Source: Escherichia coli (lineage in GTDB: Bacteria > Pseudomonadota > Gammaproteobacteria > Enterobacterales > Enterobacteriaceae). Taken from it: 64,000 nt of DNA. The stretch lies in assembly GCF_003334255.1 (NCBI RefSeq), contig NZ_QOWU01000010.1. One strand, given 5' to 3'. How positions within the stretch are numbered: position 1 is the stretch's first letter; each line of letters opens with the position of its first letter. The translations under genes and the position numbers were made by a program. The notes under the pieces are model-generated. The model had not been told where the DNA came from, made no database searches, and was given only the letters and a program-made list of their open reading frames with translations. Positions 31,642 through 50,089 of the stretch are shown in pieces.

Positions 31642-33033
<1,392 letters not shown>

Positions 33034-33038
33034 CCCTG

Positions 33039-33060
33039 ACGGCCTCTGCTGAGGCCGTCA
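33039..33060. terminator. Bidirectional hairpin between convergent pntB and tqsA
   Basis: Inverted repeat GACGGCCTC-TGCT-GAGGCCGTC (9-bp stem) between the two stop codons. Confidence 0.5.
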
Positions 33061-33963
33061 CTCTTTATTGAGATCGCTTAACAGAACGGCGATGCTTTGA
33101 CCTCCCGCTGTTTGTTCAAGCGCAATTTTGACAATAATTGTCAACGGCACGGAAAGCAGCATACCCACCGGTCCTAACAACCATCCCCAAAAAATCAACG
33201 ACAAAAATACCACCAATGTGGAAAGCCCCAGCCCACGCCCCATGATACGCGGCTCCAGAATATTGCCGAAGACCAGATTAATCAGCAGATATCCCGCCAG
33301 CACCAGCAACGCTTCGTAGAAGCCATTAAACACCAGTACCTGAGCGATAGGGGGGATTGCCGCGAGGACTGAACCAATATTCGGGATGTAATTAAGCGCA
33401 AAGGCCAGCAATCCCCAGACAAAAGCGAAGCGAACATCGAGTGCGGCGAGCATCGCCCAGGCGACCAGGCCGGTGATGATGCTGATGGCTGTTTTCAGCA
33501 CCAGATAATGAGAAACACTGTCAATCGCACGTTGAATCGCCGCCATCCCTTCAACCGGACGCGCCATCATTTGCTGAAATTTTCCGGGCAATTGTGGCAC
33601 TTCGAGCAGCATAAACAGCACCGTCAGCAGCAATAAAAATATTGATGACATGGCATTAGATAACTGCGTCAATAAGTTGGTGAGCAACGTCATCGCCGCG
33701 TTCGGATCAATATAATGCGCCAGCTGGTCAACTGAGACGTCAATCCCTACGCGTTGCAACAACGGTTCAAGCGCTTGCAGCGGCGTCATAATAGAGTTGC
33801 GATATTGCGGTAACGTCCGCGTCAACTCGTTGAGCGCGGAACCCAGATAAGCTAATAGCAACACCATCGCCATCACGATGATGGTCATCAAAATCGACAC
33901 CGCCAGTACACGCGGCACACGCCAGCGGACCATGTGTTGCACCAGCGGGTTAAGAATAACAGC
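33058..33963 (-). pseudogene. tqsA: tqsA (ydgG) 3' fragment: AI-2 exporter lacking its first 45 codons because of island insertion
   Basis: Minus-strand coding sequence ...[27 protein letters not shown]... to stop matches TqsA residues 44-344; sequence 5' of 33964 is unrelated and enters an integrase gene. Confidence 0.88.
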
Positions 33964-33964
33964 A
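33956..33964. repeat. Left att core copy (ATAACAGCA) at island/tqsA junction (attL)
   Basis: Identical 9-mer at both junctions; flanking sequence on the outer sides corresponds to contiguous tqsA codons. Confidence 0.7.
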
Positions 33965-34091
33965 TTTTATCATTTAGTGTTTTTTGCTGTTTCATAATGT
34001 TTCAGGCTGTGCATTATGTTTTTGATTATCAACAGATTTGTGATTTTCCTTGTTCCAGCTTGTTTCACGTTGTAGCCCTTTGTGCAACGAT

Positions 34092-34115
34092 CGGTGTAGT
34101 CACTGGTGTAGTCAC
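34092..34115 (+). repeat. Tandem 10-bp repeat GGTGTAGTCA x2 (candidate integrase arm-type site) upstream of int
   Basis: CGGTGTAGTCACTGGTGTAGTCAC 25 bp upstream of the int start; a near-identical copy lies at 48725-48747 near the other island end. Confidence 0.5.
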
Positions 34116-34139
34116 TTTTTCGTAAAGAGGGGGTAAAAC

Positions 34140-35369
34140 GTGAGCAGAGCAATGAACAAACTGAGCGATACCTTGCTAAGGAAACTTCATGGTAAGCCAG
34201 CGGAGAAAAACACGTTTTATAGTGATGGCGGAAACCTGAGCGTGAAATATTTAACATCAGGGAAATTGACCTGGTATTTCACATACAGGGCCGGAACGGG
34301 AAGGGAGACACGACCCGAACGCATTAAGCTGGGAAGTTATCCTGATCTGAGCCTGAAAGCAGCCAGGGAAAAAGCCGCACAGTGTCGCACATGGCTGGCT
34401 GAGGGGAAAAATCCACGTCATGAGATGAATTACACCGTACAGGAAGCGTTAAAGCCCGTAACGGTTGGCGATGCGCTCACCTACTGGCTTGAGTATTACG
34501 TAAAGGAAAACCGCGTGGATTATATCGCCCTGAAAAGGCGACTTAATAATCACGTAATACAGCAGATTGGTGCTATGCCGCTGGATAAATGCGAGCTACG
34601 GCACTGGCTGGCCTGTTTTGACCAGGTGGCAAAGCGAACGCCTGTTACTGCCGGATTCGTGCTACAGGCGTGCAAACAGGCGCTTAAGTTCTGCCGTAGG
34701 CGGCGCTATGCAATCAGCAACGTTCTGGACGATCTGAACGTGGCGGACGTTGGGAAAAAACCGGATATAAGCGAACGTGTCTTAAGTAACAAAGAACTTG
34801 GCGAATTATTGCAGGCACTGGACAAAAAAATATTTTCCCCTTACTACGTCGCGTTAATCCGCCTCCTGATTGTCTTCGGAGCCAGGACGGTAGAACTGAG
34901 GCTATCGGAGATCGGGGAGTGGGATTTTACGGAAATGCTATGGACCGTTCCGAAGGAGCACAGCAAAACGAAGGTCGCAATATTCCGGCCCATACCGGAA
35001 GCGATCCTGCCGTTCGTCACGCAGCTGGTGGAGCAGAACAGGCACACGGGCTTATTGCTGGGGGAAGTGAAACAGGAGGCCAGCGTATCGCAGTATGGAA
35101 GATTAGCGCACAGGAGGCTTAATCATCCTCACTGGTCACTGCATGACATCCGGCGCACCTTTACAACCATGCTGAACGATTTAGGCGTTGATCCGCATGT
35201 CGTGGAGCAGCTTACAGGTCATCAGATGCCAGGAATGCAGCGAGTTTATAATCATTCCCGTTATCTGGATGCTAAACGCAATGCGCTGGATATGTGGATG
35301 GAGCGGTTAGGGATACTGGCGGGAACACATGAAAACGTAACCACGCTACCAGTAGCCAGAAGAAAATAA
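34140..35369 (+). CDS. int: Tyrosine integrase, P4-type (DUF4102 arm-binding N-terminal domain plus catalytic domain ending ...HDIRRTF...Y), 409 aa from GTG
   Basis: N-terminal KLSDTLLRKLHGKPAEKNTFYSDGGNLSVKYLTSGKLTWYF resembles the P4 integrase family N-terminus; C-terminal HxxRRT and downstream Tyr; GTG at 34140 has a GAGGGGG RBS (alternative ATG at 34152). Confidence 0.88.
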   Translation: MSRAMNKLSDTLLRKLHGKPAEKNTFYSDGGNLSVKYLTSGKLTWYFTYRAGTGRETRPERIKLGSYPDLSLKAAREKAAQCRTWLAEGKNPRHEMNYTVQEALKPVTVGDALTYWLEYYVKENRVDYIALKRRLNNHVIQQIGAMPLDKCELRHWLACFDQVAKRTPVTAGFVLQACKQALKFCRRRRYAISNVLDDLNVADVGKKPDISERVLSNKELGELLQALDKKIFSPYYVALIRLLIVFGARTVELRLSEIGEWDFTEMLWTVPKEHSKTKVAIFRPIPEAILPFVTQLVEQNRHTGLLLGEVKQEASVSQYGRLAHRRLNHPHWSLHDIRRTFTTMLNDLGVDPHVVEQLTGHQMPGMQRVYNHSRYLDAKRNALDMWMERLGILAGTHENVTTLPVARRK

Positions 35370-35743
35370 TTTTTTTCGTGTTTTTTCAGTATGCGCATAC
35401 TGGATATGCGAACAGATACAACATGCAACAATGAGCAACAATGCGGAACAACTACGAACAAGAGACGAAAAAGTGTACGGATTTATAAGTAGCTGATTTT
35501 TAATGTGTTACTGGTTTTTTATACACTAGCGAATCACTCTTTAAATAGCGAGAAAAAAGGCATGAAACAATATTTTATGCCTTTGTATTAACATGAATTT
35601 AAATGATTTTATCCTGATTATTCCTGTTTCTGTAAACCATACGACCTCAACATTTGCCAACTCTGAATCATCCTGACACAATCAGACACATCCCAACGCA
35701 ATAGAACACGAAATAACTCTTTAAGAAACGAAAGGGGGCAATA

Positions 35744-35932
35744 GTGTTAAGCACTGATCGGTTTATACGTGAAAAAGAATGCGAAAAGCTAACAGGCCTT
35801 AGCCGCTCATGCCGCTACCGCCTGGAAAAGGCCGGACAATTCCCATCACGTCGTAAACTTGGCGGTCGTTCCGTTGGCTGGTCTTTATCCGAGGTTCTGG
35901 CCTGGAAGGATAGCTGCAAGGCAGTTCATTAA
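35744..35932 (+). CDS. alpA: AlpA-family transcriptional regulator / excisionase-like HTH protein (62 aa, GTG start)
   Basis: LSTDRFIREKECEKLTGLSRSCRYRLEKAGQFPSRRKLGGRSVGWSLSEVLAWKDS fits the AlpA/Vis-type small HTH family; RBS AGGGGG 5 nt upstream. Confidence 0.75.
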   Translation: MLSTDRFIREKECEKLTGLSRSCRYRLEKAGQFPSRRKLGGRSVGWSLSEVLAWKDSCKAVH

Positions 35933-36432
35933 TCACGCTGGCGGCACACAGCCGCCACACATCAATCATCTGAACACAGAGCTATAACCATGAAGATTGA
36001 ATATACGCCAGAACGTGGGCGGGGATTCGTTCGCCCTGGTGAGACTGGAAAACCACAAAATTGGGGTTTTTCAGGCATAAAAAAAGCGGCCCCGAAATGG
36101 AGCCGCCTTTCTGAACAGATAACACGCTGCGCCGTTTGTGTGTGTGATCCCAAACATAAGCACGGGGATGATAGCCGCTATCAGGCTGGTGGGCAATGCA
36201 ATCAGTCTGGTTCAGTTCGTTGCCATACCTGCAATGAGCGCTTTTCCCTGTACTCTTTAAGGAATTGCTCAAGGGCAAAAGCACATGGCGCGAATCTTTC
36301 TGATTCATGCTCTATCTTTCTGCGCCGTCTTTTCCGTGCCGGTGATAATGTTTTGGTCAATTCTTTATCGGTCATTGTGTTGTCCTGCATAGCAATGCGC
36401 CGTAATACCTCACACCACGGCGCTGATAGTGA

Positions 36433-36738
36433 TTATTCTGATTCTTTGGCCTTGCGGCGCTGTAGTTCTTCACGAGCGATGGCGATAAGTTGCCCGAGTT
36501 CTTCCGTAGCTTTAATACCAATTTTTTCCACTTGCGCCAATGCATCGAGAGAAGAAATCAGAGGATTTTCACTGCTTCCTTCTGCCTGGCGGCGGGCGAT
36601 CTCCCCGCGCATGGCGGTTACTATGAATCCGGCGTTGCTTTCGCCGTCCAGTTTTACGGATTCCATGCCATCAAAAGCATCATGTGGGATACGAATTGAA
36701 ATCTGTTTTGATTTGTCGTTGATAGTGTTTTTTGCCAT
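36433..36738 (-). CDS. Hypothetical protein (101 aa), leftward-transcribed; candidate island regulator
   Basis: Start at Met 14 of the ORF, with AGGAGA RBS 7 nt upstream; the only clearly leftward gene in the island, divergent from the replication operon; function unknown. Confidence 0.5.
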   Translation of the reverse strand: MAKNTINDKSKQISIRIPHDAFDGMESVKLDGESNAGFIVTAMRGEIARRQAEGSSENPLISSLDALAQVEKIGIKATEELGQLIAIAREELQRRKAKESE

Positions 36739-36925
36739 GTGCATTCTCCTAAACAAAAGATGTGATTCAGTATACACAAAAAAGAATCACAAAAAACACT
36801 TGACCTGTGATTCAGTTGAATTTAATTTAAATCACACCTCAGTAAGAGGATGTAAACGACAACGCCCCGAACTGTTTGCGGCAGTAGCGGGGCGTCTAAC
36901 CAAACCGTTAACAGGAGTAACGATT

Positions 36926-37123
36926 ATGGCTGGAACACAGCATACCCCACGTCTGGCGCACACACAAACTGCCTTTGTGTGGCGTTTTCTGGCACTAAGT
37001 GCCGGAGAATCTCAAATCATCCACGTAACCGCCTGGACGGAACGCGAAGCGCGTAGCCGTTGCCCGTCCGGTTGTGTTGCTGTATTCGCCGCCCGTATTC
37101 GTCAGGGGGTGTGCCATGCCTGA
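36926..37123 (+). CDS. Small protein (65 aa), first gene of rightward operon; possibly Icd-like (function uncertain)
   Basis: ATG at 36926 preceded by AGGAG RBS (ACAGGAGTAACGATTATG); C-terminal part of the spurious long ORF 35990-37123; stop overlaps next gene start. Confidence 0.5.
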   Translation: MAGTQHTPRLAHTQTAFVWRFLALSAGESQIIHVTAWTEREARSRCPSGCVAVFAARIRQGVCHA

Positions 37124-37436
37124 CATGACCAATTACCAGTACCTGATTAATCCGCATTTTAACTGTGAGCATGATATTGCTAAAAAGGTTTATTCCGCTG
37201 CGGATGGGGCTACTGACAATATATCAATGGCTGTTTCGTCAATTGGTAGCCTGATGTGGTATGCGTCAGAAAATAAGGAATATGACGAAAAGGCCATGCG
37301 CATTGATATGGGTAATATTGGTTTGTTACTGGCAATGCTTGGACATTTTGATATTTCGTTACGGTGCACCATTGAAAATGCCACAGATGCATTAAATGCT
37401 ATAAAGAAAGCGAATACTGATTCAAATCGGGGATAA
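37116..37436 (+). CDS. Hypothetical protein (106 aa)
   Basis: ATG at 37116 overlapping the upstream stop (translational coupling); no recognisable motif. Confidence 0.5.
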   Translation: MPDMTNYQYLINPHFNCEHDIAKKVYSAADGATDNISMAVSSIGSLMWYASENKEYDEKAMRIDMGNIGLLLAMLGHFDISLRCTIENATDALNAIKKANTDSNRG

Positions 37437-37442
37437 ATAATC

Positions 37443-37742
37443 ATGAGAACGTATTTATCTGGCTTTACTGCCAGCGGTTATGCACACCCCAAAATTATCC
37501 CCGGCGCTATTTATCTGGATAAGAACGGTAACAGAGTAACGGTAAAAGAACTGATGTTTGACCGTGTGTATTTTATTCGTGATGGCTATTCATTTCATAG
37601 TTCGCTGAACGTGGAGATCTTTATTAGCAGATTCCGGCGGGAAATCCCGCTTTCCAGAAATAACCATGTGTCATGTATGGATGTTGATAAAAAACTACAG
37701 GAACTGAAAAACATGATTGCCGCGTGGAGAGAGCAGAAATGA
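37443..37742 (+). CDS. Hypothetical protein (99 aa)
   Basis: ORF directly upstream of and overlapping the primase gene start; no recognisable motif. Confidence 0.5.
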   Translation: MRTYLSGFTASGYAHPKIIPGAIYLDKNGNRVTVKELMFDRVYFIRDGYSFHSSLNVEIFISRFRREIPLSRNNHVSCMDVDKKLQELKNMIAAWREQK

Positions 37743-39556
37743 AAAAAGCGCCAAATTTAAAACACCAGCCGCGTGACAAAATGACGGAAGTCATCATTTT
37801 TGCGGGTAGTGATGCGTGGGCACATGCGAAGCAGTGGCAGGAACAGGACGGGCGACTGGCTGGCGATAACGTGCCACCTGTCTGGCTTGGAGAGCAACAA
37901 CTTGCCGAACTGGACAACCTGCAAATCGTACCGGACGGACGCTATCGCGTGCGTCTCTACCAGGCGGGGTTATTGCGTCCGGGGCTTGTTAATACCATCG
38001 GGCAGAAACTGGCAGCGGCAGGTGTCAGGGATGCTGATTATTACCCTGAAGGAATGCACAGCCAGAAACGGGAGAACTGGCGCGAATATCTGGAACGTGA
38101 GCGGGGAGAGCTGGCGGAAAAGAAAAAGGTAGTTGAACTGCCTGTAAAGAAAAAAGAGCGGGTAAAAGACGATAACGCTTCATCACTGGCGCTTAACCAG
38201 ATGGGAGCAAGTCAACGCGGCGAAGTTCTCCTGGCACATTATGGCGGTGAACTGGCGATTCATGCTGACTCTGACACTGTTCACTATTACAACGGCGTTG
38301 TATGGGAGCCAGTACAGGATAAAGAATTACAGCGAGCTATGGCGCAGATTTTCATTGATGCGGAGATCAGCTATTCGCAGAACGCCATTAAATCGGCGGT
38401 CGATACCATGAAGTTAAGTTTGCCTGTAATGGGGAATACAGCCCGTAACCTGATTGGATTCAGTAACGGTGTTTTTGATACCCGGACAGGCGATTTTCGG
38501 GAGCATAACAAAAACGACTGGTTGTTAATTGCCAGTGAATTACCTTTCAGCCCACCAGCAGAGGGGGAAACGCTGGCAACACATGCGCCGAATTTCTGGA
38601 AGTGGTTACGCCGTTCGGTGGCTGAGAATGACCGCAAGGCGGATCGCGTACTGGCTGCATTATTCATGGTGCTGGCGAACCGGTACGACTGGCAGTTATT
38701 CATTGAGGTAACAGGTCCAGGGGGAAGTGGTAAAAGCGTGATGGCGGAGATTTGCACCATGCTGGCGGGTAAGGCCAACACGGTATCGGCAAGCATGAAG
38801 GCGCTGGAAGATGCCAGGGAACGCGCGTTAGTGGTTGGCTTTTCGCTGATTATCATGCCGGATATGACCCGTTACGCTGGTGATGGCGCAGGAATTAAGG
38901 CCATTACAGGCGGTGACAAGGTGGCAATCGACCCGAAGCATAAAGCCCCCTACTCAACACGCATTCAGGCGGTAGTGTTGGCGGTGAACAATAACGCCAT
39001 GTCATTCAGTGACCGCAGCGGGGGGATTTCACGTCGTCGGGTGATATTCAATTTTTCGGAGGTTGTACCGGAAAACGAACGCGACCCCATGCTGGCAGAA
39101 AAAATAGAAGGAGAGCTGGCGGTTGTGATTCGCCACCTGCTTACTCGTTTTTCTGACCAGGACGCAGCTAAACGCCTGCTGTATGAGCAGCAGAAATCAG
39201 AAGAAGCTCTGGTGATAAAACGCGAGGGCGATTCGCTGGTGGACTTCTGCGGCTATCTCATGTCGTCGGTAATGTGTGATGGTCTGTTAGTGGGTAATGC
39301 CGAAATTATTCCGTTCAGTCCGCGCAGGTATCTTTATCACGCCTATCTGGCATATATGAGGGCACACGGATTCGGTAAACCTGTAACACTGACGCGCTTC
39401 GGTAAAGATATGCCGGGGGCAATGGCGGAATATGGCAGGGAGTATATGAAACGGAAAACGAAGCACGGTTTGCGTTCAAACGTGACACTGACGGAGGAAT
39501 CAGAAGACTGGATGCCATCATGTGTATCGGTCACTAATGACGATAGCAAAAATTAA
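37739..39556 (+). CDS. Primase / replication initiator with P4/D5-type NTPase domain (605 aa)
   Basis: Walker A VTGPGGSGKS and downstream Walker B-like hydrophobic-acidic stretch in the C-terminal half (P4-family primase C-terminal domain architecture); GGAGAG RBS before ATG 37739; followed by an iteron array. Confidence 0.75.
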   Translation: MKKAPNLKHQPRDKMTEVIIFAGSDAWAHAKQWQEQDGRLAGDNVPPVWLGEQQLAELDNLQIVPDGRYRVRLYQAGLLRPGLVNTIGQKLAAAGVRDADYYPEGMHSQKRENWREYLERERGELAEKKKVVELPVKKKERVKDDNASSLALNQMGASQRGEVLLAHYGGELAIHADSDTVHYYNGVVWEPVQDKELQRAMAQIFIDAEISYSQNAIKSAVDTMKLSLPVMGNTARNLIGFSNGVFDTRTGDFREHNKNDWLLIASELPFSPPAEGETLATHAPNFWKWLRRSVAENDRKADRVLAALFMVLANRYDWQLFIEVTGPGGSGKSVMAEICTMLAGKANTVSASMKALEDARERALVVGFSLIIMPDMTRYAGDGAGIKAITGGDKVAIDPKHKAPYSTRIQAVVLAVNNNAMSFSDRSGGISRRRVIFNFSEVVPENERDPMLAEKIEGELAVVIRHLLTRFSDQDAAKRLLYEQQKSEEALVIKREGDSLVDFCGYLMSSVMCDGLLVGNAEIIPFSPRRYLYHAYLAYMRAHGFGKPVTLTRFGKDMPGAMAEYGREYMKRKTKHGLRSNVTLTEESEDWMPSCVSVTNDDSKN

Positions 39557-39569
39557 ACTTATGGAATAA

Positions 39570-39792
39570 CTGTTCACCACTGTTCACCCTGTCATAAATA
39601 TCTTTTGTATCAGTATGTTATAGGGTGAACAGTTATTTATGAACTGTTCACCAAACTATTCACTGTTCACCTTTTTGATTGTTTATTGAGCTTCAAGGGT
39701 GAACAGTGGTGAATAGTTGGTGAATAGTTTTTGTGAAACTGTTCACCCCTTAACATTATGAATTAAAAGATAAAATATCAAAAGGTGAACAG
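39570..39792. repeat. Iteron array (at least 8 copies of CTGTTCACC / GGTGAACAG in both orientations): candidate island replication origin
   Basis: Copies at 39570, 39580, 39624(inv), 39644, 39663, 39698(inv), 39739, 39784(inv) plus GGTGAATAG variants at 39708 and 39718, in AT-rich DNA just after the primase gene. Confidence 0.65.
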
Positions 39793-39843
39793 GTGAAGGG
39801 TTAAAACGCAAAAATTTTAATTTACTGCTGTGAGATAAAGCCT

Positions 39844-40089
39844 ATGACAGCGAAGCACACAAAAAAATCACAATCGCACGCCCTTGATTTGACGGAACAC
39901 TGGTTAAGGGTGTCGATAAAAATCATCGACCGCAACGCCGGGGAAGGATATGCGAAAGCACATCCCGAACTGATTAGCTCATTCATGACAACGGCAGCTG
40001 CAAACTTTGCCACGCTGACAGAACGGGAGATTGCCGAAGCGGAACAGGTGACAACCATCAACGTTAAAACCGGAGAGCAGACAGCATGA
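39844..40089 (+). CDS. Hypothetical protein (81 aa)
   Basis: ORF immediately upstream of and overlapping the ssb start (ATGA overlap); weak RBS. Confidence 0.4.
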   Translation: MTAKHTKKSQSHALDLTEHWLRVSIKIIDRNAGEGYAKAHPELISSFMTTAAANFATLTEREIAEAEQVTTINVKTGEQTA

Positions 40090-40496
40090 CAGCACAGATA
40101 GCAGCTTACGGGCGGCTGGTGGACGACCCGCAGGTAAAACAGACCAGTAAGGGCACACCGATGACGCTGGCGCGTATGGCGGTATCGTTGCCATGTAGTC
40201 AGGCGCAGGATGGGCAGGCGACGTTATGGCTATCGGTCATCGCATTTGGTAAGCAGGCCGACTTCCTGGCTAAACATCAAAAAGGCGACGTTGCCAGCGT
40301 ATCCGGCACGATGCAGGTCAGCCAGTGGACCGGACAGAACGGGGAAACGCGGCAGGGTTATCAGGTTATTGCAGACAGCGTAATCAGTGCCCGTGCGGCA
40401 CGTCCTGGCGGGAACAGACGCAAAACCACAGGCACACAGGGTAATCAGCCACCAGCGGGAGGCGATGACCCTTACGGTGACGGTATTCCGTTCTGA
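40086..40496 (+). CDS. ssb: Single-stranded DNA-binding protein (136 aa)
   Basis: OB-fold-like N-terminal region, Gly/Pro/Gln-rich linker and acidic C-terminal tail ...DDPYGDGIPF, the hallmark SSB protein-interaction tail. Confidence 0.75.
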   Translation: MTAQIAAYGRLVDDPQVKQTSKGTPMTLARMAVSLPCSQAQDGQATLWLSVIAFGKQADFLAKHQKGDVASVSGTMQVSQWTGQNGETRQGYQVIADSVISARAARPGGNRRKTTGTQGNQPPAGGDDPYGDGIPF

Positions 40497-40506
40497 GGGG
40501 GTGGCG

Positions 40507-40779
40507 ATGGTACATGACCGCATAGCGGAAGAACTCGAGGCGAAAGGCTTTTACCGGAGGGCGGCGGCGCGATGGGGTGAAGTCATGCTGCTGGTGGAGA
40601 CAGACAAGGAACGGCATCAGGTTACGATGCGACGGCTGGAATGTTCCAGGAAGGCACAGAAGCCACCGGAGCCGCCGGATAACTTCGGAGACCTGAGAAA
40701 GGCAGTAGATCGCACTTATGCTGAAATGGGTATAGATGGTGTAAGCGATGAAATATGGCGTAATTACCCAGACAGCTAA
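40507..40779 (+). CDS. PerC-family-like small transcriptional activator (90 aa)
   Basis: MVHDRIAEELEAKGFYRRAAARWGEVM... resembles the conserved PerC motif (LEAxGxxRRAAxRW) as I remember it; GAGGGGG RBS. Confidence 0.5.
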   Translation: MVHDRIAEELEAKGFYRRAAARWGEVMLLVETDKERHQVTMRRLECSRKAQKPPEPPDNFGDLRKAVDRTYAEMGIDGVSDEIWRNYPDS

Positions 40780-40784
40780 TCAAC

Positions 40785-40808
40785 AGCCGGAGAAATCCGG
40801 CTTTTTTT
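40785..40808 (+). terminator. Intrinsic terminator
   Basis: AGCCGGAGAAATCCGGCT followed by TTTTTTT. Confidence 0.65.
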
Positions 40809-40903
40809 GCACCAGTTGAAACGGTATGGCGCATTACCGGGTTTTCGTCACGGTCAGGCATAGTTACTATCTGAAACAAACAGACACAACAGAGGAAAAA
40901 ACA

Positions 40904-41128
40904 ATGCCGATGAAATTTGATGAGATATTAAAACAGCGTGATAAATACCATGCTGACAACATGGAGACGATGAGCATCAATGATTACCGCGCATTCCTGG
41001 AGACGGGCGCACTGATTGAAAAGGATCAGCATGGTTTTGTGAGATGTGCTCTGTCCGGTGAAATGCTGGCGGTAAATCCTGAACAGATAGATGCATTGAT
41101 AGAATTTCTGAAAGGGATCAGGGACTGA
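40904..41128 (+). CDS. Hypothetical protein (74 aa)
   Basis: Start at internal Met with GAGGAAAAAACA-ATG RBS; followed by a terminator almost identical to the one at 40785. Confidence 0.45.
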   Translation: MPMKFDEILKQRDKYHADNMETMSINDYRAFLETGALIEKDQHGFVRCALSGEMLAVNPEQIDALIEFLKGIRD

Positions 41129-41138
41129 GCACGCATAC

Positions 41139-41160
41139 AGCCGGAGCAATCCGGCTTTTT
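41139..41160 (+). terminator. Intrinsic terminator (near-duplicate of 40785-40808)
   Basis: AGCCGGAGCAATCCGGCT followed by TTTTT. Confidence 0.65.
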
Positions 41161-41420
41161 GTCATTTTTTGTAAATTATTTGTTCGTGGTTGTTCCACGT
41201 TGTTCACTGACAGGATCGGCATATTTTACCCGAACTGAATCATGAGTATTCTCGCCCGTGGTGCCAGGACGCTGGGGCCACTTTCCCGCCTGTTAATGTG
41301 CTCGCCAATATTCATTACCAGGCGGGAAAACGATCGGTGCGATTGCTGATTTCCTTATGAAAAACGGTTGAGTTTTTGCCGCGTCCTGGAGTTCCTTACT
41401 TAACCCCAGGACTTTTTTTT

Positions 41421-42578
41421 ATGCCGAGAATAATCGAATTACGCCAGCAGAAAACCGCCATTAAAAATCAGATGCGCGACATGCTGGAGAACGCGGAAAA
41501 AGAAAACCGCAGCCTTAACGATGCAGAGGGCGCAAAATTTGACGAATTACGCGCTAAAGCTGAATCCCTCGATAAAGACATTTCCCGCCTTGAAGCCATT
41601 GCAGACGAAGAGCGCAGCAAGCCAGGTAAAAGCAGCCAGACCACTGACCCGGCAGAACTCCGCAACTACATCCTGACAGGTGAAACCCGCGCATTAAGTA
41701 CAGGCGTTCCCGCTGATGGTGGTTATACCGTTATCCCCGAACTGAACACCGAAATCATGCGAATGCTGACGGATGAATCCACCATGCGCCGCATCTGTAC
41801 CGTGAAGAAAATCAGCAGCAACGAGTTTAAGCAGCTTGTTTCCGCTGGCGGTGCGACCGTTAACCACGGTGAAGAGGGTAAGACACGCGAACAGACCAGC
41901 ACCCCGCAGATTAACGAGGTGAGCATTAAGCTGTATCCGGTCTATGCGTACCCGCGCACCACACAGGAAATCGTGGATTTTTCCGATGTGGACATCCTTT
42001 CATGGCTGACGGGTGAGATTGGCGACACCTTCACGGAAACCGAAGAAAGCGATCTGGTTGTGGGCGACGGTGACAAAAAAGCAAAAGGTTTTTTATCCGT
42101 ACCCCGTGCAGAGAAGAACGACAAAGAGCGTGATTTTGGTACGTTGCAGGTAATTAAACCTTCCGAATCTCTGGCGTGGACATCTGCGGACCCGCTGATC
42201 GACCTGAAATTTGCATTACGTAAAAAATACCGCAAAAACGCGGTCTGGGTGGTTAACTCCACGACGGCGGCAAAACTTCAGAAGGTGAAGAACGCGAACG
42301 GTGATTACATCTGGCGCGACCGTTTACAGGCGGGTGATCCTGATACGTTGCTGGGCCTTCCGGTCGAATATCTGGAGTTTATGCCTGATAACGTTATTGC
42401 CCTGGGTGACTTCAAACGCGGTTACTACATTGTTGATCACGAAACAGGTGTTCGCACCAGACCGGACAACCTCACAGAGCCGGGCTTCATCAAAATTTTC
42501 ACGCAGAAATATTTAGGCGGTGGCGTGGTGGATTCGAACGCGATCAAGATTCTGGAACTGCCACAGGACGACGATTAA
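41421..42578 (+). CDS. Major capsid protein, HK97 fold, with N-terminal coiled-coil scaffolding (delta) domain (385 aa from ATG 41421)
   Basis: N-terminal coiled-coil region (IELRQQKTAIKNQMRDMLENAEKENRSLNDAEGAKFDELRAKAESLDKDISRLEAIADEE) followed by a region typical of HK97-family capsid proteins; ORF track start 41376 is a TTG extension; strong terminator follows. Confidence 0.85.
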   Translation: MPRIIELRQQKTAIKNQMRDMLENAEKENRSLNDAEGAKFDELRAKAESLDKDISRLEAIADEERSKPGKSSQTTDPAELRNYILTGETRALSTGVPADGGYTVIPELNTEIMRMLTDESTMRRICTVKKISSNEFKQLVSAGGATVNHGEEGKTREQTSTPQINEVSIKLYPVYAYPRTTQEIVDFSDVDILSWLTGEIGDTFTETEESDLVVGDGDKKAKGFLSVPRAEKNDKERDFGTLQVIKPSESLAWTSADPLIDLKFALRKKYRKNAVWVVNSTTAAKLQKVKNANGDYIWRDRLQAGDPDTLLGLPVEYLEFMPDNVIALGDFKRGYYIVDHETGVRTRPDNLTEPGFIKIFTQKYLGGGVVDSNAIKILELPQDDD

Positions 42579-42590
42579 CAGCATACAGAA

Positions 42591-42620
42591 GGGGCTTAAA
42601 AGCCCCTTTAGTGTTTTATG
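42591..42620 (+). terminator. Intrinsic terminator after major capsid gene
   Basis: GGGGCTT-AA-AAGCCCC hairpin followed by a T-rich tract. Confidence 0.65.
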
Positions 42621-42632
42621 GGTGAAAAAATT

Positions 42633-43190
42633 ATGAAGAGTATGGAAATCCGGTCATCGGAAATCACCACCAGCGCCAGCAACACGCTTACAGGCTACGT
42701 TGTTCGCTGGGATAAGCTTTCAGAGCTGCTATGGGGGGAGTTTTACGAAAAATTCCAGCGGGGAGCGTTTACTGAATGGCTTGCGGCGGGTAATGACGTT
42801 CGCGGCCTGTATGAGCATGACCACAGCATGTTGCTGGGGCGTACCCGTTCCGGCACGCTGAAACTGGAAGAGGACGAAACAGGGTTACGCTTTGAACTGA
42901 CCCCACCGGATACCAGTACAGGGCGCGACGTTATCGAACTGGTTAAGCGTGGGGACATCTCGGGGATGAGCTTTGGCTTTCGCTCCCGTAAGGATGTATG
43001 GGATACCACAACAGATCCATGCGTGCGCACCGTGCTGGTGGCGGAACTGTACGAAATTACCGTTACATCGGTACCGGCTTACCCCGATTCCGGCGTGGAG
43101 CTGGCCCGCCGTTCCCTGTATGAGCAGCACCCCGAAAAAATGCCGCGTGCGGATAATCGCCGCTGGTGGGTGGATTTAGCGGGGGTGTGA
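42633..43190 (+). CDS. Prohead maturation protease, HK97 family (S78-like), about 186 aa
   Basis: Sequence typical of HK97-type prohead proteases (GYVVRWDKLS..., YEHDHSMLLGRTRSGTL, GDISGMSFGF); start ambiguous among ATG 42618/42633/42642. Confidence 0.8.
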   Translation: MKSMEIRSSEITTSASNTLTGYVVRWDKLSELLWGEFYEKFQRGAFTEWLAAGNDVRGLYEHDHSMLLGRTRSGTLKLEEDETGLRFELTPPDTSTGRDVIELVKRGDISGMSFGFRSRKDVWDTTTDPCVRTVLVAELYEITVTSVPAYPDSGVELARRSLYEQHPEKMPRADNRRWWVDLAGV

Positions 43191-43191
43191 T

Positions 43192-44403
43192 ATGTGGCTT
43201 TTCAGAAGAAAAAAAGAGCAGCGCAGCATGACGCTTGATGAATTTATGGCGCTGGCTGGCACATCGAACACGGGGGCGGGTGAGTACGTATCATCGGGGA
43301 CAGCGGAATCACTGCCCGCCGTCATGAACGCCGTGACGGTCATCTCTGAGGCGGTGGCTACCATGCCGTGTTACCTGTACCTGGTACGCAATGAGAAGGG
43401 GAAGGAGGCCCGCGAGTGGCTTGATTCTCATCCGGTCGATCACATCCTCAACGAGCGCCCGAACGCGTGGCAGACTCCCTACCAGTTTAAGCGAATGATG
43501 ATCCGCCACTGCCTGTTAAACGGTAATGCTTATGCGGTGATTCAGTGGGGGCGTGATGGTTTTCCGGTGGCTTTACATCCTTACCCGCCGCAGTCGGTGA
43601 ACGTGGAGCAGACAGGCGAACACAACTGGCGCTACTGCATCACTGACGCCTACACCGGAAACACCCGCAACTATTTACCGTGGGAGGTTCTCCACCTTCG
43701 TTACTCCACGGATGACGGTTTTATGGGGCGCTCACCTGTAACCATCTGCCGCGAATCGCTGGGGCTTGGGCTGGCCCAACAACGCCACGGCGCGAGCGTG
43801 ATGCGTGATGGCATGATGGCGGCAGGGGTTATCACGTCAGGCGAATGGCTGGACGGCGTGAAGGGCAAACAGGCATTAGCCGCACTGGAACGCTACAAAG
43901 GGGCCAGAAACGCCGGAAAAACGCCCATCCTTGAAGGGGGTATGAGCTATCAGCAGCTGGGCATGAGTAATCAGGATGCTGAATGGCTGGCCTCCCGTCG
44001 CTTCACCATTGAAGACATCGCCCGAATGTTCAACGTCTCGCCGATTTTTCTGCAGGAATACAGCAACAGCACCTACAGCAATTTCAGCGAGGCAAGCCGC
44101 GCATTTCTCACCATGACAATGCGCCCGTGGCTGGCGAACTTTGAGCAGCAGATAAAAAACGCCCTGCTGGTGGCCTCGCCTGTACCTGGTATCCGGTATC
44201 AGGTGGAGTTTGACAGCGCGGACCTGTTACGGGCCACACCTGGCGAACGCTTTGCCACCTATGAACGCGGCATCAAATCCGGCGTTATGTGCCCGAACGA
44301 AGCCCGCGAACGTGAAGGGCTGTCCCCGCGTGATGGTGGTGATGAGTTCAGCCAGGCATGGAAACAGGAAGTAAAAATCAGCGAGGGAGAAAAACCGGAA
44401 TGA
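43192..44403 (+). CDS. Portal protein, HK97 family (403 aa)
   Basis: Size, position and conserved portal-like core (…LLNGNAYAVIQWGRDG…, …ILEGGMSYQQLGMSNQDAEWL…); immediately follows the protease with 1-nt spacing. Confidence 0.8.
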   Translation: MWLFRRKKEQRSMTLDEFMALAGTSNTGAGEYVSSGTAESLPAVMNAVTVISEAVATMPCYLYLVRNEKGKEAREWLDSHPVDHILNERPNAWQTPYQFKRMMIRHCLLNGNAYAVIQWGRDGFPVALHPYPPQSVNVEQTGEHNWRYCITDAYTGNTRNYLPWEVLHLRYSTDDGFMGRSPVTICRESLGLGLAQQRHGASVMRDGMMAAGVITSGEWLDGVKGKQALAALERYKGARNAGKTPILEGGMSYQQLGMSNQDAEWLASRRFTIEDIARMFNVSPIFLQEYSNSTYSNFSEASRAFLTMTMRPWLANFEQQIKNALLVASPVPGIRYQVEFDSADLLRATPGERFATYERGIKSGVMCPNEAREREGLSPRDGGDEFSQAWKQEVKISEGEKPE

Positions 44404-44738
44404 ACATAGGGCGACTGCGTGACAGGGTAACGATTCAGACCCTGAAACAGACCAGGGATATAACCGGCGAAATACTCGAAACGTGGGAGGACGGTCACAC
44501 ACTCTGGGCAAGCGTGAACATGATCAGCAGCAAGGAGGCCATTTCATCGGGTGCAGAGCTGGCGATTGGTACCGTAAGGATCTGGATACGGTACCGGAAG
44601 GACATCAATGCCACCAGCCGGATAAAGGTCAGTACGGGGCCGCTGGCGGGGCGTGTACTGAATATCATCGGGCAGCCGCTGCCGGATGCCGCCAGGACAC
44701 GCCTTGAAATTCTTTGTCGTGAGGGCGCGGAAAAATGA
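44400..44738 (+). CDS. Head closure / head-tail adaptor protein (112 aa)
   Basis: MNIGRLRDRVTIQTLKQTRD... resembles the head-tail joining family; ATGA overlap with portal stop; GAGGGAGA RBS. Confidence 0.7.
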   Translation: MNIGRLRDRVTIQTLKQTRDITGEILETWEDGHTLWASVNMISSKEAISSGAELAIGTVRIWIRYRKDINATSRIKVSTGPLAGRVLNIIGQPLPDAARTRLEILCREGAEK

Positions 44739-45031
44739 CAGAAGAACTTATCACCCTGGAAGAAGTGAAACTCCATTGCCGCATCGATGGCGACGAGGAA
44801 GACCAGTTAATCAGCGGATACATCGCCGCATCGCTTGAGGCGTGCCAGATACACATAGGCAGGCGCTTTGATGACGGGCTGGAGTTCACGCCAGCCATAA
44901 AGATTGGCTGCATGATGTTTATCGCTCACCTGTATGAAAATCGCCAGATTGTCGCGGATAACGCAAAAACACGCGTACCCATGACGATTGGTGCACTCTG
45001 GACGGCTTACCGTGATGTGGGGGTGTACTGA
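44735..45031 (+). CDS. gp6-like head-tail connector protein (98 aa)
   Basis: MTEELITLEEVKLHCRIDGDEEDQLISGYIAASLEACQIHIG... resembles the gp6-like connector family N-terminus. Confidence 0.7.
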   Translation: MTEELITLEEVKLHCRIDGDEEDQLISGYIAASLEACQIHIGRRFDDGLEFTPAIKIGCMMFIAHLYENRQIVADNAKTRVPMTIGALWTAYRDVGVY

Positions 45032-45471
45032 TGCCGTGGCAACCATTAAGACGATGCACAGAACCAGGCTGTAACAGGCGCGTGAAGTCCGGCAAGTGTG
45101 AGGAGCACAGGCGGGCGGCATGGCGTGCAGAGGATGCCAGACGAGGACACCGCCGCGCGCGTGGGTACTCCAGACAGTGGGACAAATACCGCGCCATGTA
45201 TCTGAGTAAAAACCCGTTATGCGTGCGATGCCTTGAGAAGGGGATATATACGCCCGCCGTGGTGGTGGATCACATTATCCCGATTAATGGCGGTGATGAT
45301 GTTCTCTTCTGGCCCGAATGGAACCATCAGCCATTGTGCCAGGCGTGCCATAACCAGAAAACGAAATGGCTTGATCCGGCAACAAAAAGCAAGCGTGCCG
45401 CAGGTGGATTTCGTGAAGAGGAAGAACGGGCCGCTAACCGCAATAACTGGATGTATGACGCTGATGAATGA
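45031..45471 (+). CDS. HNH endonuclease (packaging-associated), 146 aa
   Basis: Cys pairs plus VVDHIIPINGGDD...NHQPLCQACHNQK (HNH motif); located immediately upstream of TerS as in HK97-like cos packaging modules. Confidence 0.85.
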   Translation: MPWQPLRRCTEPGCNRRVKSGKCEEHRRAAWRAEDARRGHRRARGYSRQWDKYRAMYLSKNPLCVRCLEKGIYTPAVVVDHIIPINGGDDVLFWPEWNHQPLCQACHNQKTKWLDPATKSKRAAGGFREEEERAANRNNWMYDADE

Positions 45472-45759
45472 GCGGGAACAAAACCGCCTTATCCGTGGAC
45501 TTATAAGGCAGCGTGACGCATGGAAGACACAGGAAACAGGGCATAAAGATAAAGCGTCAGGACGCGCAGAACGCATCACAGCGAAGCGATTAACCGACCG
45601 TGACCGCGAGGTTATGGAATGTTTCCGCAATCGCTGATGAGGCTGTATGACGGGGTGGGGGGCGTTTTCAGGACAAACCCGACCCCGCCGGGCACCGACC
45701 GCCTCCTCAAATTTTTATGCACGGGAATTTTTTGAAAAATAATCTGACGAAAAATAAGC

Positions 45760-46116
45760 ATGGCAAGACCACCGAAAGCCCCCGCCTACCTGGATGACAT
45801 CGCCGTGAAGCAGTGGCGGGAAAAATCGCGGCAGCTTGCGGAACGGGGAGACCTGACCCCCGCCGACTGGAGCAATCTGGAACTGTATTGTGTCAACTAC
45901 TCCATTTACCGGAAAGCCGTCGCAGACCTTGCGGCGCGCGGGTTCAGCATTGTTAACAGTCAGGGCGGCGAGAGCAGAAACCCCGCATTAAGCGCGAAAT
46001 CAGACGCTGAAAGGGTGATGATAAAAATGGCCTCCTTGCTCGGTTTTGACCCGATAAGCCGCCGTAAAAACCCACCGGAAACAGAAGAAGAGGACGAGCT
46101 TGACCGCCTGGAATAA
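45760..46116 (+). CDS. Terminase small subunit, P27 family (118 aa)
   Basis: Resembles P27-type TerS (AVKQWREKSRQLAERGDLTPADWSNLELYCVNYSIYRKA); overlaps TerL start. Confidence 0.8.
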   Translation: MARPPKAPAYLDDIAVKQWREKSRQLAERGDLTPADWSNLELYCVNYSIYRKAVADLAARGFSIVNSQGGESRNPALSAKSDAERVMIKMASLLGFDPISRRKNPPETEEEDELDRLE

Positions 46117-47761
46117 GTACGCAGAAGACGTAAAAACGGGCAAAATTCAGGCCTGTAAACGGTTAAAACAGGCCGTTAAACGGTACTTTTCGGACCTTAA
46201 AAGCCCCCTTTACACGTTCGATCGTGAGGTTGTGGATCGGTTTATTGCCTTTTCCAGGGTGTGCCCGCACGTAAAAGGGCCGATGCGTGGCAGACCCATT
46301 GAGCTGGAGCCGTGGCAGCAGTTCGCCTTTGCGTGCATCCTCGGCTTTAAGGTTAAGGCCACCGGACGGCGCAAATATACGAGCGCCTTTATCGAAGTGC
46401 CGCGCAAAAATGCTAAATCAACGACCGCCGCGATTCTGGCTAACTGGTTTCTGATTATGGAGAACGGTCAGCAGGATATTTACACCGCAGCGGTGAGCCG
46501 TGACCAGGCGAGGATCGTATTTGATGATGCGCGTCAGATGTGCATTTTATCCCGACCGTTACGCAGGCGGGTGAATATTCAGGCGCATAAGGTGATACAC
46601 CCGAAAACCAACAGCCTGTTAAAGCCGCTGGCAGCAAAAGCGGCAACTATCGAGGGCACAAACCCCAGTCTTTCTATCGTGGACGAATACCACCTACACC
46701 CCGACAACGGCGTATATTCTGCGCTTGAACTGGGGATGGGGGCACGTCCCGAAGGGCTGTTATTTGCCATTACCACATCGGGAAGTAACGTCGTTTCAGC
46801 CTGTAAGCAGCATTATGATTATTGCTGCCAGATCCTGGACGGCGAAGAGGTTAACGAATCGCTTTTTGTGCTGATTTACGAACTGGACGACGAAAACGAG
46901 GTTGATGATCCGGAGATGTGGATAAAGGCGAACCCTAATATCGATGTTTCCGTGGATCGTGAAAAACTGGCCTCAACCATTCAGAAAGCGCGGGGTATTC
47001 CGTCGCAATGGGTGGAGATGATGACAAAGCGATTTAATATCTGGTGTCAGGGGACTACCCCGTGGATGGGTAATGGTGCATGGGCTGAGTGTGCCGGAAC
47101 GTTCACGGAGGAAGATTTACACGGTCAGGAGTGTTACGCGGGGCTGGACTTATCATCAACCAGCGATATTTCCAGCGTGTGCTATGCCTTTCCGGTCGGT
47201 AAAACCATTATGATGATTTCCCGTCATTATCTGCCGGAGTTCCAGCTACAGAACCCCGCCAATAAAAACCGCGCTGTCTATCGTCAGTGGGCTAAAGCAG
47301 GCTGGATACGCACAACGCCTGGCGACTGCATTGATTACGACCGGATCAGAGATGACATCATGCAGGACGCGGAGAAATTTAATATCAGGCTGGTGGGCTT
47401 TGATACGTGGAACGCCACGCATCTCAGAACGCAATTACAGGGGGCAGGTTTTGAGGTGGAGCCGTTCCCGCAAACCTACCTCAGATTCAGTCCGGCGGCG
47501 AAATCGTTCGAAGTTTTTGTTAACCGCAGGGTGATTGTGCATCGTGGCGATCCGGTGTTGTCCTGGTCGATGAGTAACGTCGTGATGCAGAGTGACGCGA
47601 ACGCCAATATCAAGCCGAACAAGAAAAAATCACCGAACAAGATAGACCCGAGCGTGGCGGCGCTGATGGCGTTTGGTACATTCCAGGCAGAGCATGAGGA
47701 TTTTGCTTTTGATATAAGCGACAGCCACCGCCAGAAACTGGAAGAATTTAGCGGGGTGTAA
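46100..47761 (+). CDS. Terminase large subunit (553 aa; apparent TTG start)
   Basis: ATPase and nuclease domains in typical TerL arrangement; no in-frame ATG/GTG near the 5' end, TTG at 46100 preceded by GAGGA. Confidence 0.85.
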   Translation: MTAWNKYAEDVKTGKIQACKRLKQAVKRYFSDLKSPLYTFDREVVDRFIAFSRVCPHVKGPMRGRPIELEPWQQFAFACILGFKVKATGRRKYTSAFIEVPRKNAKSTTAAILANWFLIMENGQQDIYTAAVSRDQARIVFDDARQMCILSRPLRRRVNIQAHKVIHPKTNSLLKPLAAKAATIEGTNPSLSIVDEYHLHPDNGVYSALELGMGARPEGLLFAITTSGSNVVSACKQHYDYCCQILDGEEVNESLFVLIYELDDENEVDDPEMWIKANPNIDVSVDREKLASTIQKARGIPSQWVEMMTKRFNIWCQGTTPWMGNGAWAECAGTFTEEDLHGQECYAGLDLSSTSDISSVCYAFPVGKTIMMISRHYLPEFQLQNPANKNRAVYRQWAKAGWIRTTPGDCIDYDRIRDDIMQDAEKFNIRLVGFDTWNATHLRTQLQGAGFEVEPFPQTYLRFSPAAKSFEVFVNRRVIVHRGDPVLSWSMSNVVMQSDANANIKPNKKKSPNKIDPSVAALMAFGTFQAEHEDFAFDISDSHRQKLEEFSGV

Positions 47762-47774
47762 TGAGGTCAGCAGC

Positions 47775-48056
47775 ATGACAGAAGCCGAAATAACGGGATT
47801 AATCCGCCGCGTTGCCGGAATCAGCCAGCAGGCTGACGAACAGGCCACGCAGCCGGACAGCGTGACAGCCGAAAACTATGCGCGTGTTGTTGCTGAGGTG
47901 ATGCGCCGTGATGGTATAGAACTTAATGGCGTGGATATGCGCAACATACGAACCAGAGTTCTTGAGTTGCTGGCCTACCGTCGCCGCGTGGAGATGTATC
48001 GGGAGAAGGAGAAAATAACGTACCACTGGAAGAAGCCGGAGCGGTTGCGGCGGTAA
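47775..48056 (+). CDS. Hypothetical protein (93 aa), last gene of island
   Basis: ATG 47775 with GAGG RBS 8 nt upstream; no recognisable motif. Confidence 0.5.
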   Translation: MTEAEITGLIRRVAGISQQADEQATQPDSVTAENYARVVAEVMRRDGIELNGVDMRNIRTRVLELLAYRRRVEMYREKEKITYHWKKPERLRR

Positions 48057-48349
48057 CTGGTTGATATTCCCGACGGACCAAAAATGGGTGGCTACATCCC
48101 TCGCTTCTGAGGACTGTTAACAAGCTGCCTGAAAGACAGTCACAAACTACGAAATTTTCGCAGTTTAATTAATGATCAGCTTAATCGCTAACCCGCTGAT
48201 ATTTTCGGAAACCTCAATTTGAGGAAGTCGGCGCGGTAACTCGCTGAACTTTAAGCAAAGTGCAAAATTGCGCTTGCTGAATAATCATTATGATTACGCA
48301 GATGATTAAGGAATGACCGAAGGCGGAAATTCGCCTGTGGTTAATGGGG

Positions 48350-50051: not shown

Positions 50052-50057
50052 TGAAGA

Positions 50058-50084: not shown

Positions 50085-50089
50085 GAACA

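Follow-up and report, generated by a model that had tools for sequence, protein, structure and literature searches.

The 187-bp spacer at positions 36739-36925 of a 64,000-nucleotide stretch of Escherichia coli DNA (the whole stretch is called the window here) separates a leftward gene for a 101-aa protein from a rightward replication operon, and the question that this locus raises is whether the spacer is a genetic switch and what might operate it. The element that carries it is a capsid-forming phage-inducible chromosomal island (cf-PICI), known here from its genes. The existence of a repressor in Gram-negative PICIs has been described as "unclear," and the differing induction strategies of Gram-positive and Gram-negative islands have been called "a mystery" (PMC6092414). 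An earlier note on this DNA had proposed a switch with the leftward gene product as the candidate repressor, a proposal that is supported by a ribbon-helix-helix (RHH)-like fold in that protein, by covariation between its N-terminal strand and the repeats in the spacer, and by the location of these repeats on conserved -35 and -10 elements. From the comparisons described below, we consider it quite probable that the 187-bp region is a P4-like immunity/switch region of the cf-PICI, in which an RHH repressor would act on four sub-sites and induction would proceed via read-through from alpA.

The leftward open reading frame (ORF) of 101 aa was present on the minus strand at 36433-36738, as the earlier note had it, with a Shine-Dalgarno sequence, GGAGAA, at 36749 to 36744. 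Within the spacer, the repeat finder placed TGTGATTCAGT at 36761-36771 and 36806-36816, and GAATCACA was found at 36784-36791. The note had recorded one repeat twice together with a single partner; its second copy at 36806 was correctly placed, the first starts at 36761 instead of 36760, and the partner is present, lying at 36784-36791 rather than at 36787. A fourth half-site, AATCACA, was found at 36830-36836, and the set therefore resolves into four sub-sites forming two 31-bp sites that share one geometry, TGTGATT-N17-AATCACA, the first at 36761-36791 and the second, which begins 45 bp further on, at 36806-36836. This pattern had no further match in the 64 kb when up to two mismatches were allowed (0.35 expected), and of the nine TGTGATTY octamers that the window contains, four are clustered within 76 bp. 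The sub-site centers, at 36764.5, 36787.5, 36809.5, and 36832.5, are separated by gaps of 23, 22, and 23 bp, or about two helical turns, which would place all four sub-sites near one face of the DNA. The putative operators and the promoters that they overlap are as follows.

36761-36791, either strand: operator 1, sub-sites TGTGATTC (36761-36768) and GAATCACA (36784-36791), enclosing the leftward -10 candidate
36806-36836, either strand: operator 2, sub-sites TGTGATTC (36806-36813) and AAATCACA (36829-36836), spanning the rightward promoter spacer, -10, and start
36800-36828, plus strand: rightward promoter from the anchored alignment, -35 TTGACC (36800-36805), 17-nt spacer, -10 TAATTT (36823-36828)
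36769-36774, minus strand: leftward -10 candidate TATACT, with TAnnnT at the same place in all operator types (anchored alignment, read directly)

The TTGACC hexamer, previously singled out as -35-like, was thus found at 36800-36805. In 15 representatives, the -35 TTGACx and the -10 TAAnnT were conserved, with a fixed distance of 60 to 63 nt between the leftward ATG and the -35, and the rightward transcription start is expected at about 36834-36836. The overlap of operator 2 with the rightward promoter spacer, -10, and start site implies repression, and the enclosure of the leftward -10 by operator 1 implies autoregulation. Separately, a perfect 11-nt inverted repeat, AGTGTTTTTTG (36724-36734) and CAAAAAACACT (36790-36800), joins codons 2 to 5 of the 101-aa gene with the stretch between operator 1 and the -35.

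Evidence on what recognizes the sub-sites came from 106 related loci in nine genera; E. coli genomes, IMG/VR, and genomes of other genera were the sources, together with look-ups of exact proteins. Nine of these loci were contributed by a genome-contig scan, and a fixed-loop DNA pattern scan of IMG/VR gave no loci beyond those collected. The gene order was constant: int, alpA, optional cargo (BRO-N or AntA), the leftward repressor gene, a spacer of approximately 190 to 210 bp, and the Icd-like gene through to primase/helicase. When the representatives were anchored on the -35, all showed the same rigid layout (TTGACx, a 17- or 18-nt spacer, and TAAnnT), with one sub-site directly after the -35, one over the expected start, and two upstream around the minus-strand TAnnnT. 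The sub-site sequence varied between elements, all four positions changing together, and it did so in step with residues 11 to 15 of the protein, which lie in its predicted N-terminal strand.

Strand KQISI or RQISI: sub-site class TGTGATT (type A)
Strand QLTTV: sub-site class TGTGTTT
Strand QSLTA: sub-site class TGTAAG
Strand QMTTI: sub-site class GTATATC/GAGATA
Strand QQLNA: sub-site class GGTATTC
Strand QMKNI, QLKNI, or QIKNV: sub-site class GTGTG(T/C)A
Type B operator region: TGTGTTTC
Type C operator region: TGTAAGAC

The count matrix of nine strand variants versus six sub-site classes, drawn from 40 distinct intergenic sequences, was perfectly diagonal. Like strands went with like sites despite divergent flanks, type A being found in Serratia, Edwardsiella, Yersinia, and Klebsiella; type B was shared by Xenorhabdus and Photorhabdus, and type C was found in Enterobacter. 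Other operators occurred beside AlpA proteins 95 to 100% and primases 95 to 99% identical to those of the window, and TGTGATT was retained with AlpA at 31 to 42%, primase at 44 to 67%, and Icd at 44 to 54% identity. Type A loci carried three replication protein families (D5-type, DUF927, and RepA-helicase). Residues 24 to 101 of the protein were mostly 85 to 90% identical across E. coli loci of all types and 54 to 77% identical in the most distant loci. On this comparison, the sub-site class varies independently of AlpA, the Icd-like protein, the primase, and the remainder of the 101-aa protein. The one-to-one match of strand variant and sub-site class points, on comparative grounds, to the strand residues as determinants of recognition of the short repeated sub-sites. 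These data are strong comparative evidence that the 101-aa protein and the repeats are a repressor/operator pair. Sliding identity profiles between operator types showed mosaicism and no clean single swap.

The protein itself was then characterized by profile and structure comparison.

36433-36738, minus strand: 101-aa YlcI/YnfO-family protein, candidate repressor (NF041551 match and AlphaFold models)

It belongs to NCBIfam NF041551 (YlcI_YnfO_N), scoring 65.7 bits over residues 9 to 50 against a curated cut-off of 30, and PGAP gives relatives the YlcI/YnfO name too; no functional study of the family was found in the literature. The AlphaFold models consist of an extended segment at 11-17, a helix at 19-28, a D-G-E-S turn at 31-34, and a helix at 35-53/54, followed by a low-confidence linker and a single long helix at 59-100. 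A strand followed by two helices with a G-x-S/T/N turn is the RHH topology, and this RHH-like N-domain covers approximately residues 9 to 53, with a pLDDT of 87 to 93 over residues 11 to 50; a monomer model cannot display the intersubunit sheet. A profile of the N-domain retrieved 96 cluster representatives, one remote member of which matched Pfam Arc at 5.4e-4, and a 57-aa protein encoded at the same position in the O157 element matched YlcI_YnfO_N at 0.0014 and Arc at 0.041. The models and matches make it probable that the 101-aa protein is one of the RHH (Arc/MetJ/CopG) DNA-binding proteins, its long C-terminal helix being likely an oligomerization helix. Short homologs of the N-domain are carried by lambdoid prophages, including YlcI and YnfO of E. 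coli K-12 (phrog_949, NF041551), so that cross-talk between helper phages and the satellite repressor is possible. A short 59-aa YlcI/YnfO variant without the C-terminal helix was encoded at locus L108 (2199-2378, minus strand), where three 11-bp palindromic sub-sites, GTGTTnAACAC, surround the -35 (2400-2480).

Several results weigh against the repressor/operator assignment. Pfam gave nothing significant for the 101-aa protein and 29 relatives, PDB sequence searches with full and N-terminal profiles gave noise-level matches only (HicB RHH at E=1.7), Foldseek with both models found no RHH structure, and the hhalign match to Arc was weak (E=0.0038, probability 9%), with the beta-strand in register with that of Arc. 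Of the two promoters, the rightward one has a weak -10, TAATTT, and falls below the threshold of a consensus promoter scan; the leftward one has no recognizable -35, for which reason it may be weak or activated. The region at 36079-36111, described below as the terminator of the leftward operon, forms on the plus strand a weaker terminator-like hairpin after alpA, in the path of alpA read-through. The variable N-terminal codons lie only about 25 to 100 bp from the sites, and linkage alone would keep both together; as linkage contributes, the argument rests on the concerted change of four sites and on recurrence across genera. Finally, the sub-site pairs of types F and G are direct, not inverted, so each sub-site must be an independent dimer site. 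The direct pairs and the 11-bp palindromic sub-sites of the 59-aa variant both fit one RHH dimer per sub-site.

Downstream of the rightward start, the GC stem reported in the earlier note ahead of the first rightward gene was present with corrected coordinates, ACGCCCCG at 36862-36869 pairing with CGGGGCGT at 36888-36895 (8 bp, 18-nt loop), and was one of three hairpins in the leader.

36837-36849, plus strand: small 5'-terminal leader hairpin CCUC-AGUAA-GAGG, with counterparts of different stems in other types
36854-36906, plus strand: conserved leader element, hairpin 36862-36895 (8-bp outer and 4- to 6-bp inner stem) and then invariant UCUnACCA
36906-36922, plus strand: hairpin CGUUA-ACAGGAG-UAACG with the kil-like Shine-Dalgarno in its loop, stem variant CGAUA/UAUCG elsewhere

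The leader alignment contained 26 distinct variants, among them those of one Klebsiella phage, one Morganella phage, and the O157 element, whose repressor is different. The stem was paired in 86.9% of cells, versus 31 to 47% when the partner columns were slid, with compensatory changes in six pairs, and the observed values were reached by 0 of 500 shuffles. A covariance model built on it matched the window only once (62 bits, E=8e-15). The GC stem is, therefore, a leader hairpin supported by covariation and common to elements with other repressors. It was rejected as an intrinsic terminator because it continues into CUAACCAAACC with no U-tract, and it is unlisted in the terminator scan. The leader hairpins may be a Rho-dependent attenuator like P4 timm, a nut-like signal, or a stability element. 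At L003 (2996-3047), L040 (1511-1562), and L108 (1753-1805), the leader hairpin was found again upstream of the repressor gene, a duplication suggesting that modules are shuffled through recombination in the hairpin/Icd 5' region. The hairpin with UCUnACCA was also seen in the records of Morganella phage IME1369_01 (L110, 2466-2517), where a fully different 10-bp stem lies approximately 240 bp upstream of umuD, and of Klebsiella phage P12620-1 (L109, 2496-2547).

The leftward transcript was found to extend beyond the 101-aa gene.

36202-36390, minus strand: second leftward gene, 62 aa (phrog_21027, E=1.6e-15)
36079-36111, minus strand: intrinsic terminator of the leftward operon, 13-bp stem, 5-nt loop, U7 (free energy -21 to -22 kcal/mol, z = -3.9)

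The terminator-like hairpin that had been suggested to end this transcript is real, running from about 36111 to 36079, and what the suggestion lacked is the 62-aa gene in the transcript. It is a GC-rich hairpin followed by a U-tract, as expected of an intrinsic terminator, and resembles the ctRNA terminator shape in the Rfam-scan alignment; it is unlisted in the consensus terminator scan. The minus-strand terminator thus ends a two-gene leftward operon. In the O157 element, the 62-aa gene is kept beside an unrelated repressor gene: the O157:H7 EcCIEDL933-type element has an unannotated leftward 57-aa Arc-like gene (L107, 2262-2435, minus strand) and then the same 62-aa gene. PGAP calls a plus-strand pseudo "Icd-like" gene there instead. 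Two copies of CATGGTAATTACC lie 30 bp apart in this element and are likely operators.

The spacer at 36739-36925 itself sits inside a conserved eta-like frame ending in the first rightward gene.

35744-35932, plus strand: alpA, Vis/AlpA-type regulator (phrog_2790, E=1.7e-17; frame analysis)
35990-37123, plus strand: long open frame, 377 aa from the first ATG and open from 35933, P4 eta analog ending as the kil/Icd-like gene
36926-37123, plus strand: first rightward gene, 65 aa, Icd-like domain, P4 kil homolog (NF033153, E=5.4e-18)

Followed upstream from the kil-like gene, its frame meets no stop codon over 993 nt until the in-frame alpA TAA at 35930-35932, and no other stop separates the two genes in this frame. 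The long frame is antisense to the terminator and to the 62-aa and 101-aa genes, beyond which it crosses both operators and the leader. It was kept open in 76 of 80 distinct loci, over 399 to 1,623 nt, the other two frames closing within 3 to 120 nt. Across 14 representatives of all operator types, the spacer contained no in-frame stop triplets versus three to nine in each other frame, with a per-locus probability of 0.0015 to 0.026. From these counts we conclude that the frame is kept open by selection, and the spacer is not simply noncoding. In Escherichia phage vB_KppS-Ant (LR881103), the depositors annotated only a 324-aa long plus-strand ORF, and an antisense 67-aa YlcI-like gene (MATKAVNAKSAQKKIRFPHE...; L099, 8619-8822, minus strand) was missed. 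A terminator-like hairpin, CACACAAACTGCCTTTGTGTG followed by GCGTTTTCTG, was also observed on the plus strand at 36961-36990, within the kil-like coding region at the start of the Icd-like domain; by analogy it might be the counterpart of P4 timm.

The P4 left operon offers a close parallel. In P4 (X51522), an ORF at 8168-8812 on the minus strand begins where ORF88 (Vis/AlpA-like) ends, and its C-terminal 65 aa match the Icd-like model at E=1.6e-21. We take this ORF to be kil nested in eta. The window has the same arrangement, a 65-aa Icd-like kil gene forming the end of a longer ORF near vis/alpA. Both elements have an AlpA/Vis-like gene, a long ORF ending as a 65-aa Icd-like kil, and then a DUF4222-type ORF and a primase; in both, kil is the first gene after an internal promoter and its frame is open upstream. 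The Icd-like protein of the window gave no BLASTP alignment with the annotated P4 "cI" CDS, and the kinship is visible only via the NCBIfam model. The two elements also differ. The immunity factor of P4 is a processed leader RNA, and none is detectable in the window element, which has instead an antisense protein-repressor gene with its own promoter inside the long ORF, and putative operators on the internal promoter. The window element has its own capsid and terminase genes, whereas the P4 late region (sid, delta, psu) does not. In terms of this analogy, the rightward promoter would correspond to PLE, the alpA promoter to PLL, and the long frame to eta, with the RHH gene replacing the CI RNA. 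Forti and colleagues reportedly found in 1999 that eta translation on PLL transcripts prevents Rho-dependent termination and makes transcription insensitive to immunity. The eta product is not known to have a function.

From the observed sites, their geometry, the promoter conservation, the covariation, the hairpin, and the open frame, we infer the following scheme for binding, oligomeric state, repression, and induction. The N-terminal beta-strand, residues 11 to 17, would read the 7- to 8-bp sub-site, and four dimers would fill the four sub-sites, joined by the long C-terminal helix into a tetramer or a larger assembly. Occupation of operator 2 would block RNA polymerase at the rightward promoter (-35 at 36800, -10 at 36823), which is predicted to drive the kil/Icd-like, DUF4222, and primase genes along with the remainder of the operon, and occupation of operator 1 would autoregulate the leftward promoter. 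Induction would come from upstream, by AlpA-dependent transcription from the alpA promoter running through the nested leftward operon. Translation of the eta-like frame would keep this transcription alive and in collision with transcription of the repressor gene, and the read-through so sustained would reach the replication genes independently of the repressed promoter. AlpA is an activator needed for induction of E. coli PICIs (PMC6092414), and Pseudomonas aeruginosa AlpA is a processive antiterminator (PMC7969949, PMC9371919); the alpA read-through route would fit both. A bolder version is put forward tentatively and seems to us rather doubtful: in a large group of enterobacterial satellites, present in about 12% of complete E. 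coli genomes, an antisense-embedded RHH master repressor would have taken the place of P4 RNA immunity, and AlpA-driven read-through, transcribed and translated, would at the same time bypass the operator-controlled promoter, avoid termination by Rho, and shut off the repressor gene through convergent transcription, making a self-locking switch.

Other explanations of the region were weighed against the same data. The repeats might be bound by another factor, namely, AlpA, the Icd/kil-like protein, a primase/initiator at iterons or an origin, or a host protein such as CRP. TGTGA...TCACA resembles CRP half-sites, P4-type initiators bind short repeats (the annotated P4 ori repeats), and PHROGs labels the Icd-like family as "transcriptional repressor." A CRP site was rejected on spacing, N17 between the 7-mers rather than TGTGA-N6-TCACA, and on the variation of the sequence class among elements, as a host factor cannot explain six or more classes. 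An AlpA site was rejected because near-identical AlpA proteins occur beside different sub-sites and divergent ones beside TGTGATT, and replication iterons or an origin because the sub-site class is uncoupled from the primase, with three replication protein families in type A; more generally, the sub-sites change despite near-identical AlpA and primase and persist with very different AlpA, Icd, and replication proteins. The PHROG label derives from the obsolete P4 "cI gene product" CDS, and we regard recognition by another factor as very improbable. It is hardly conceivable that the repeats and the stem arose by chance in a promoter region rich in AT: short two-copy repeats are common and the promoter scan rises above background nowhere in the region, but the shuffle expectations contradict chance, the hairpin covaries, and the geometry is conserved with compensated sequence changes across genera, so that the comparative data refute it.

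The long frame raises a different alternative, that the region is mainly protein coding. The genuine gene would then be the plus-strand ORF at 35990-37123, with the 101-aa ORF as an antisense shadow of it and the repeats as a side effect of coding. The open frame of 993 nt here and in 76 of the 80 loci, the lack of in-frame stops in the spacer against three to nine in each other frame, the annotation of the long ORF alone in vB_KppS-Ant, and the PGAP pseudo "Icd-like" genes called in this frame all agree with it. Its translation is, however, rich in Cys, Ser, and Arg, matches no family, and passes through the terminator hairpin, whereas the minus-strand protein is in a curated family found also in lambdoid prophages without any Icd gene, folds confidently (pLDDT as above), and has a conserved Shine-Dalgarno sequence and ATG. 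We judge this explanation unlikely in its exclusive form; in P4, translation of eta matters and its product is not known to have a function, so coding and switch readings would be compatible rather than exclusive. Under immunity of the P4/P1 type, the GC hairpin would act as an antisense RNA like CI/C4, preventing translation of kil and ending transcription prematurely, and the RHH protein would be only an accessory. The hairpin is placed as P4 cI is, between a constitutive promoter and kil, it is conserved by covariation and present in elements with other repressor genes, and a Shine-Dalgarno sequence lies inside a hairpin loop. Against this, Rfam at E≤10 over 35600-38000 gave no match on the hairpin or the operators, C4 and IsrK included; the leader has no similarity to the P4 leader and its covariance model no match in P4; the RNAduplex energy of its antisense pairing with the kil-like gene was no better than that of shuffles; and the leader is only about 90 nt. 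The leader therefore does not qualify as a P4/P1 C4-type antisense RNA, and we find RNA-based immunity improbable.

A P4-like switch region with an RHH repressor can also be compared with other known switches. Switches in which an RHH repressor acts on divergent promoters are already known, as with P22 Arc and Mnt. Like P22 immI (Mnt, Arc), the window locus would have a small RHH repressor with operators overlapping back-to-back divergent promoters (Pmnt/Pant in P22), and Mnt consists of an RHH N-domain and a C-terminal helical oligomerization domain, as modeled for the 101-aa protein. The two have no significant sequence relationship, however, the window sub-sites are 22 to 23 bp apart instead of being adjacent half-sites of a 21-bp operator, and the window switch would govern satellite replication genes rather than an antirepressor. 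In NikR, two half-sites about two turns apart (GTATGA-N16-TCATAC) are bound by RHH dimers joined by a C-terminal domain, and the omega repressor binds WATCACW heptads in direct or inverted orientation, as window-type sub-sites also occur in both orientations. NikR and omega differ in having other C-terminal domains, and the omega heptads are contiguous; Pfam found no metal-sensing domain in the 101-aa protein, the C-terminal part of which is modeled as one long helix. The resemblance of AATCACA to WATCACW is probably coincidental. Staphylococcus aureus pathogenicity islands (SaPIs) have a divergent regulatory pair by int, with the repressor leftward and the replication module rightward (PMC6092414). 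The Stl/Rpr repressors of these Gram-positive PICIs share the divergent layout and the many allelic specificities, but the fold is unrelated, Stl proteins being larger helix-turn-helix proteins, and in the 101-aa family the variation lies in the DNA-reading head, with the rest conserved. AlpA is absent from SaPIs and is present and required for induction in E. coli elements, and no helper-phage antirepressor is known for the window-type element. Genes resembling antirepressors were observed in many related elements, where BRO-N, AntA, or ORF6N genes co-directional with alpA lie between alpA and the repressor gene and are possibly element-encoded antirepressors; the window element is without such cargo.

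L001, 1882-2460: antirepressor-like cargo gene
L100, 2993-3802: antirepressor-like cargo gene
L101, 3342-3935: antirepressor-like cargo gene
L105, 3203-4012: antirepressor-like cargo gene

In profile scans of the window ORFs, the island genes extended from 34140 to approximately 48056, beginning with the integrase (34140-35369) and AlpA (35744-35932). alpA lies upstream of the rightward operon and in the same direction, and is followed by the leftward pair, the 62-aa gene (36202-36390) and the 101-aa gene (36433-36738). The rightward operon comprises the 65-aa Icd-like gene, a 106-aa gene, the DUF4222 gene, a P4/D5-type primase, and SSB, and then come the major capsid protein, protease, portal, head closure and adaptor proteins, HNH, TerS, and TerL. 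The island ORFs that were scanned included none for tail or lysis functions, and no tRNA gene was found at 33000-52000. An integrase, alpA, a primase, and its own capsid and packaging genes within approximately 10 to 15 kb make this a cf-PICI, as described for such gene content (10.1101/2022.09.08.507074); the related EcCIEDL933 is induced by a helper phage, which supplies tails (10.1101/2022.09.08.507074). The 101-aa gene type was present in 654 of 5,426 complete E. coli genomes (~12%), and tblastn found no match to the repressor gene in 50,697 phage records.

Three aspects of the locus appear to be new: the assignment of the YlcI/YnfO family to a repressor role, a protein repressor in Gram-negative PICIs, for which the literature knew none before, and a repressor gene antisense within an eta-like ORF. 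The locus offers a candidate repressor from an uncharacterized family that is found also in lambdoid prophages, together with candidate operators at base resolution, and the natural swaps in specificity predict which residues read which bases. It also links PICIs to the P4 eta/kil antitermination design and exposes systematic annotation errors, in which a gene or pseudogene is placed on the long antisense frame and the repressor gene is overlooked. In the bolder version of the switch described above, multiple DNA-reading heads on a conserved body would define at least six hetero-immune specificity classes of these islands, and an inducer from a helper phage might target that body.

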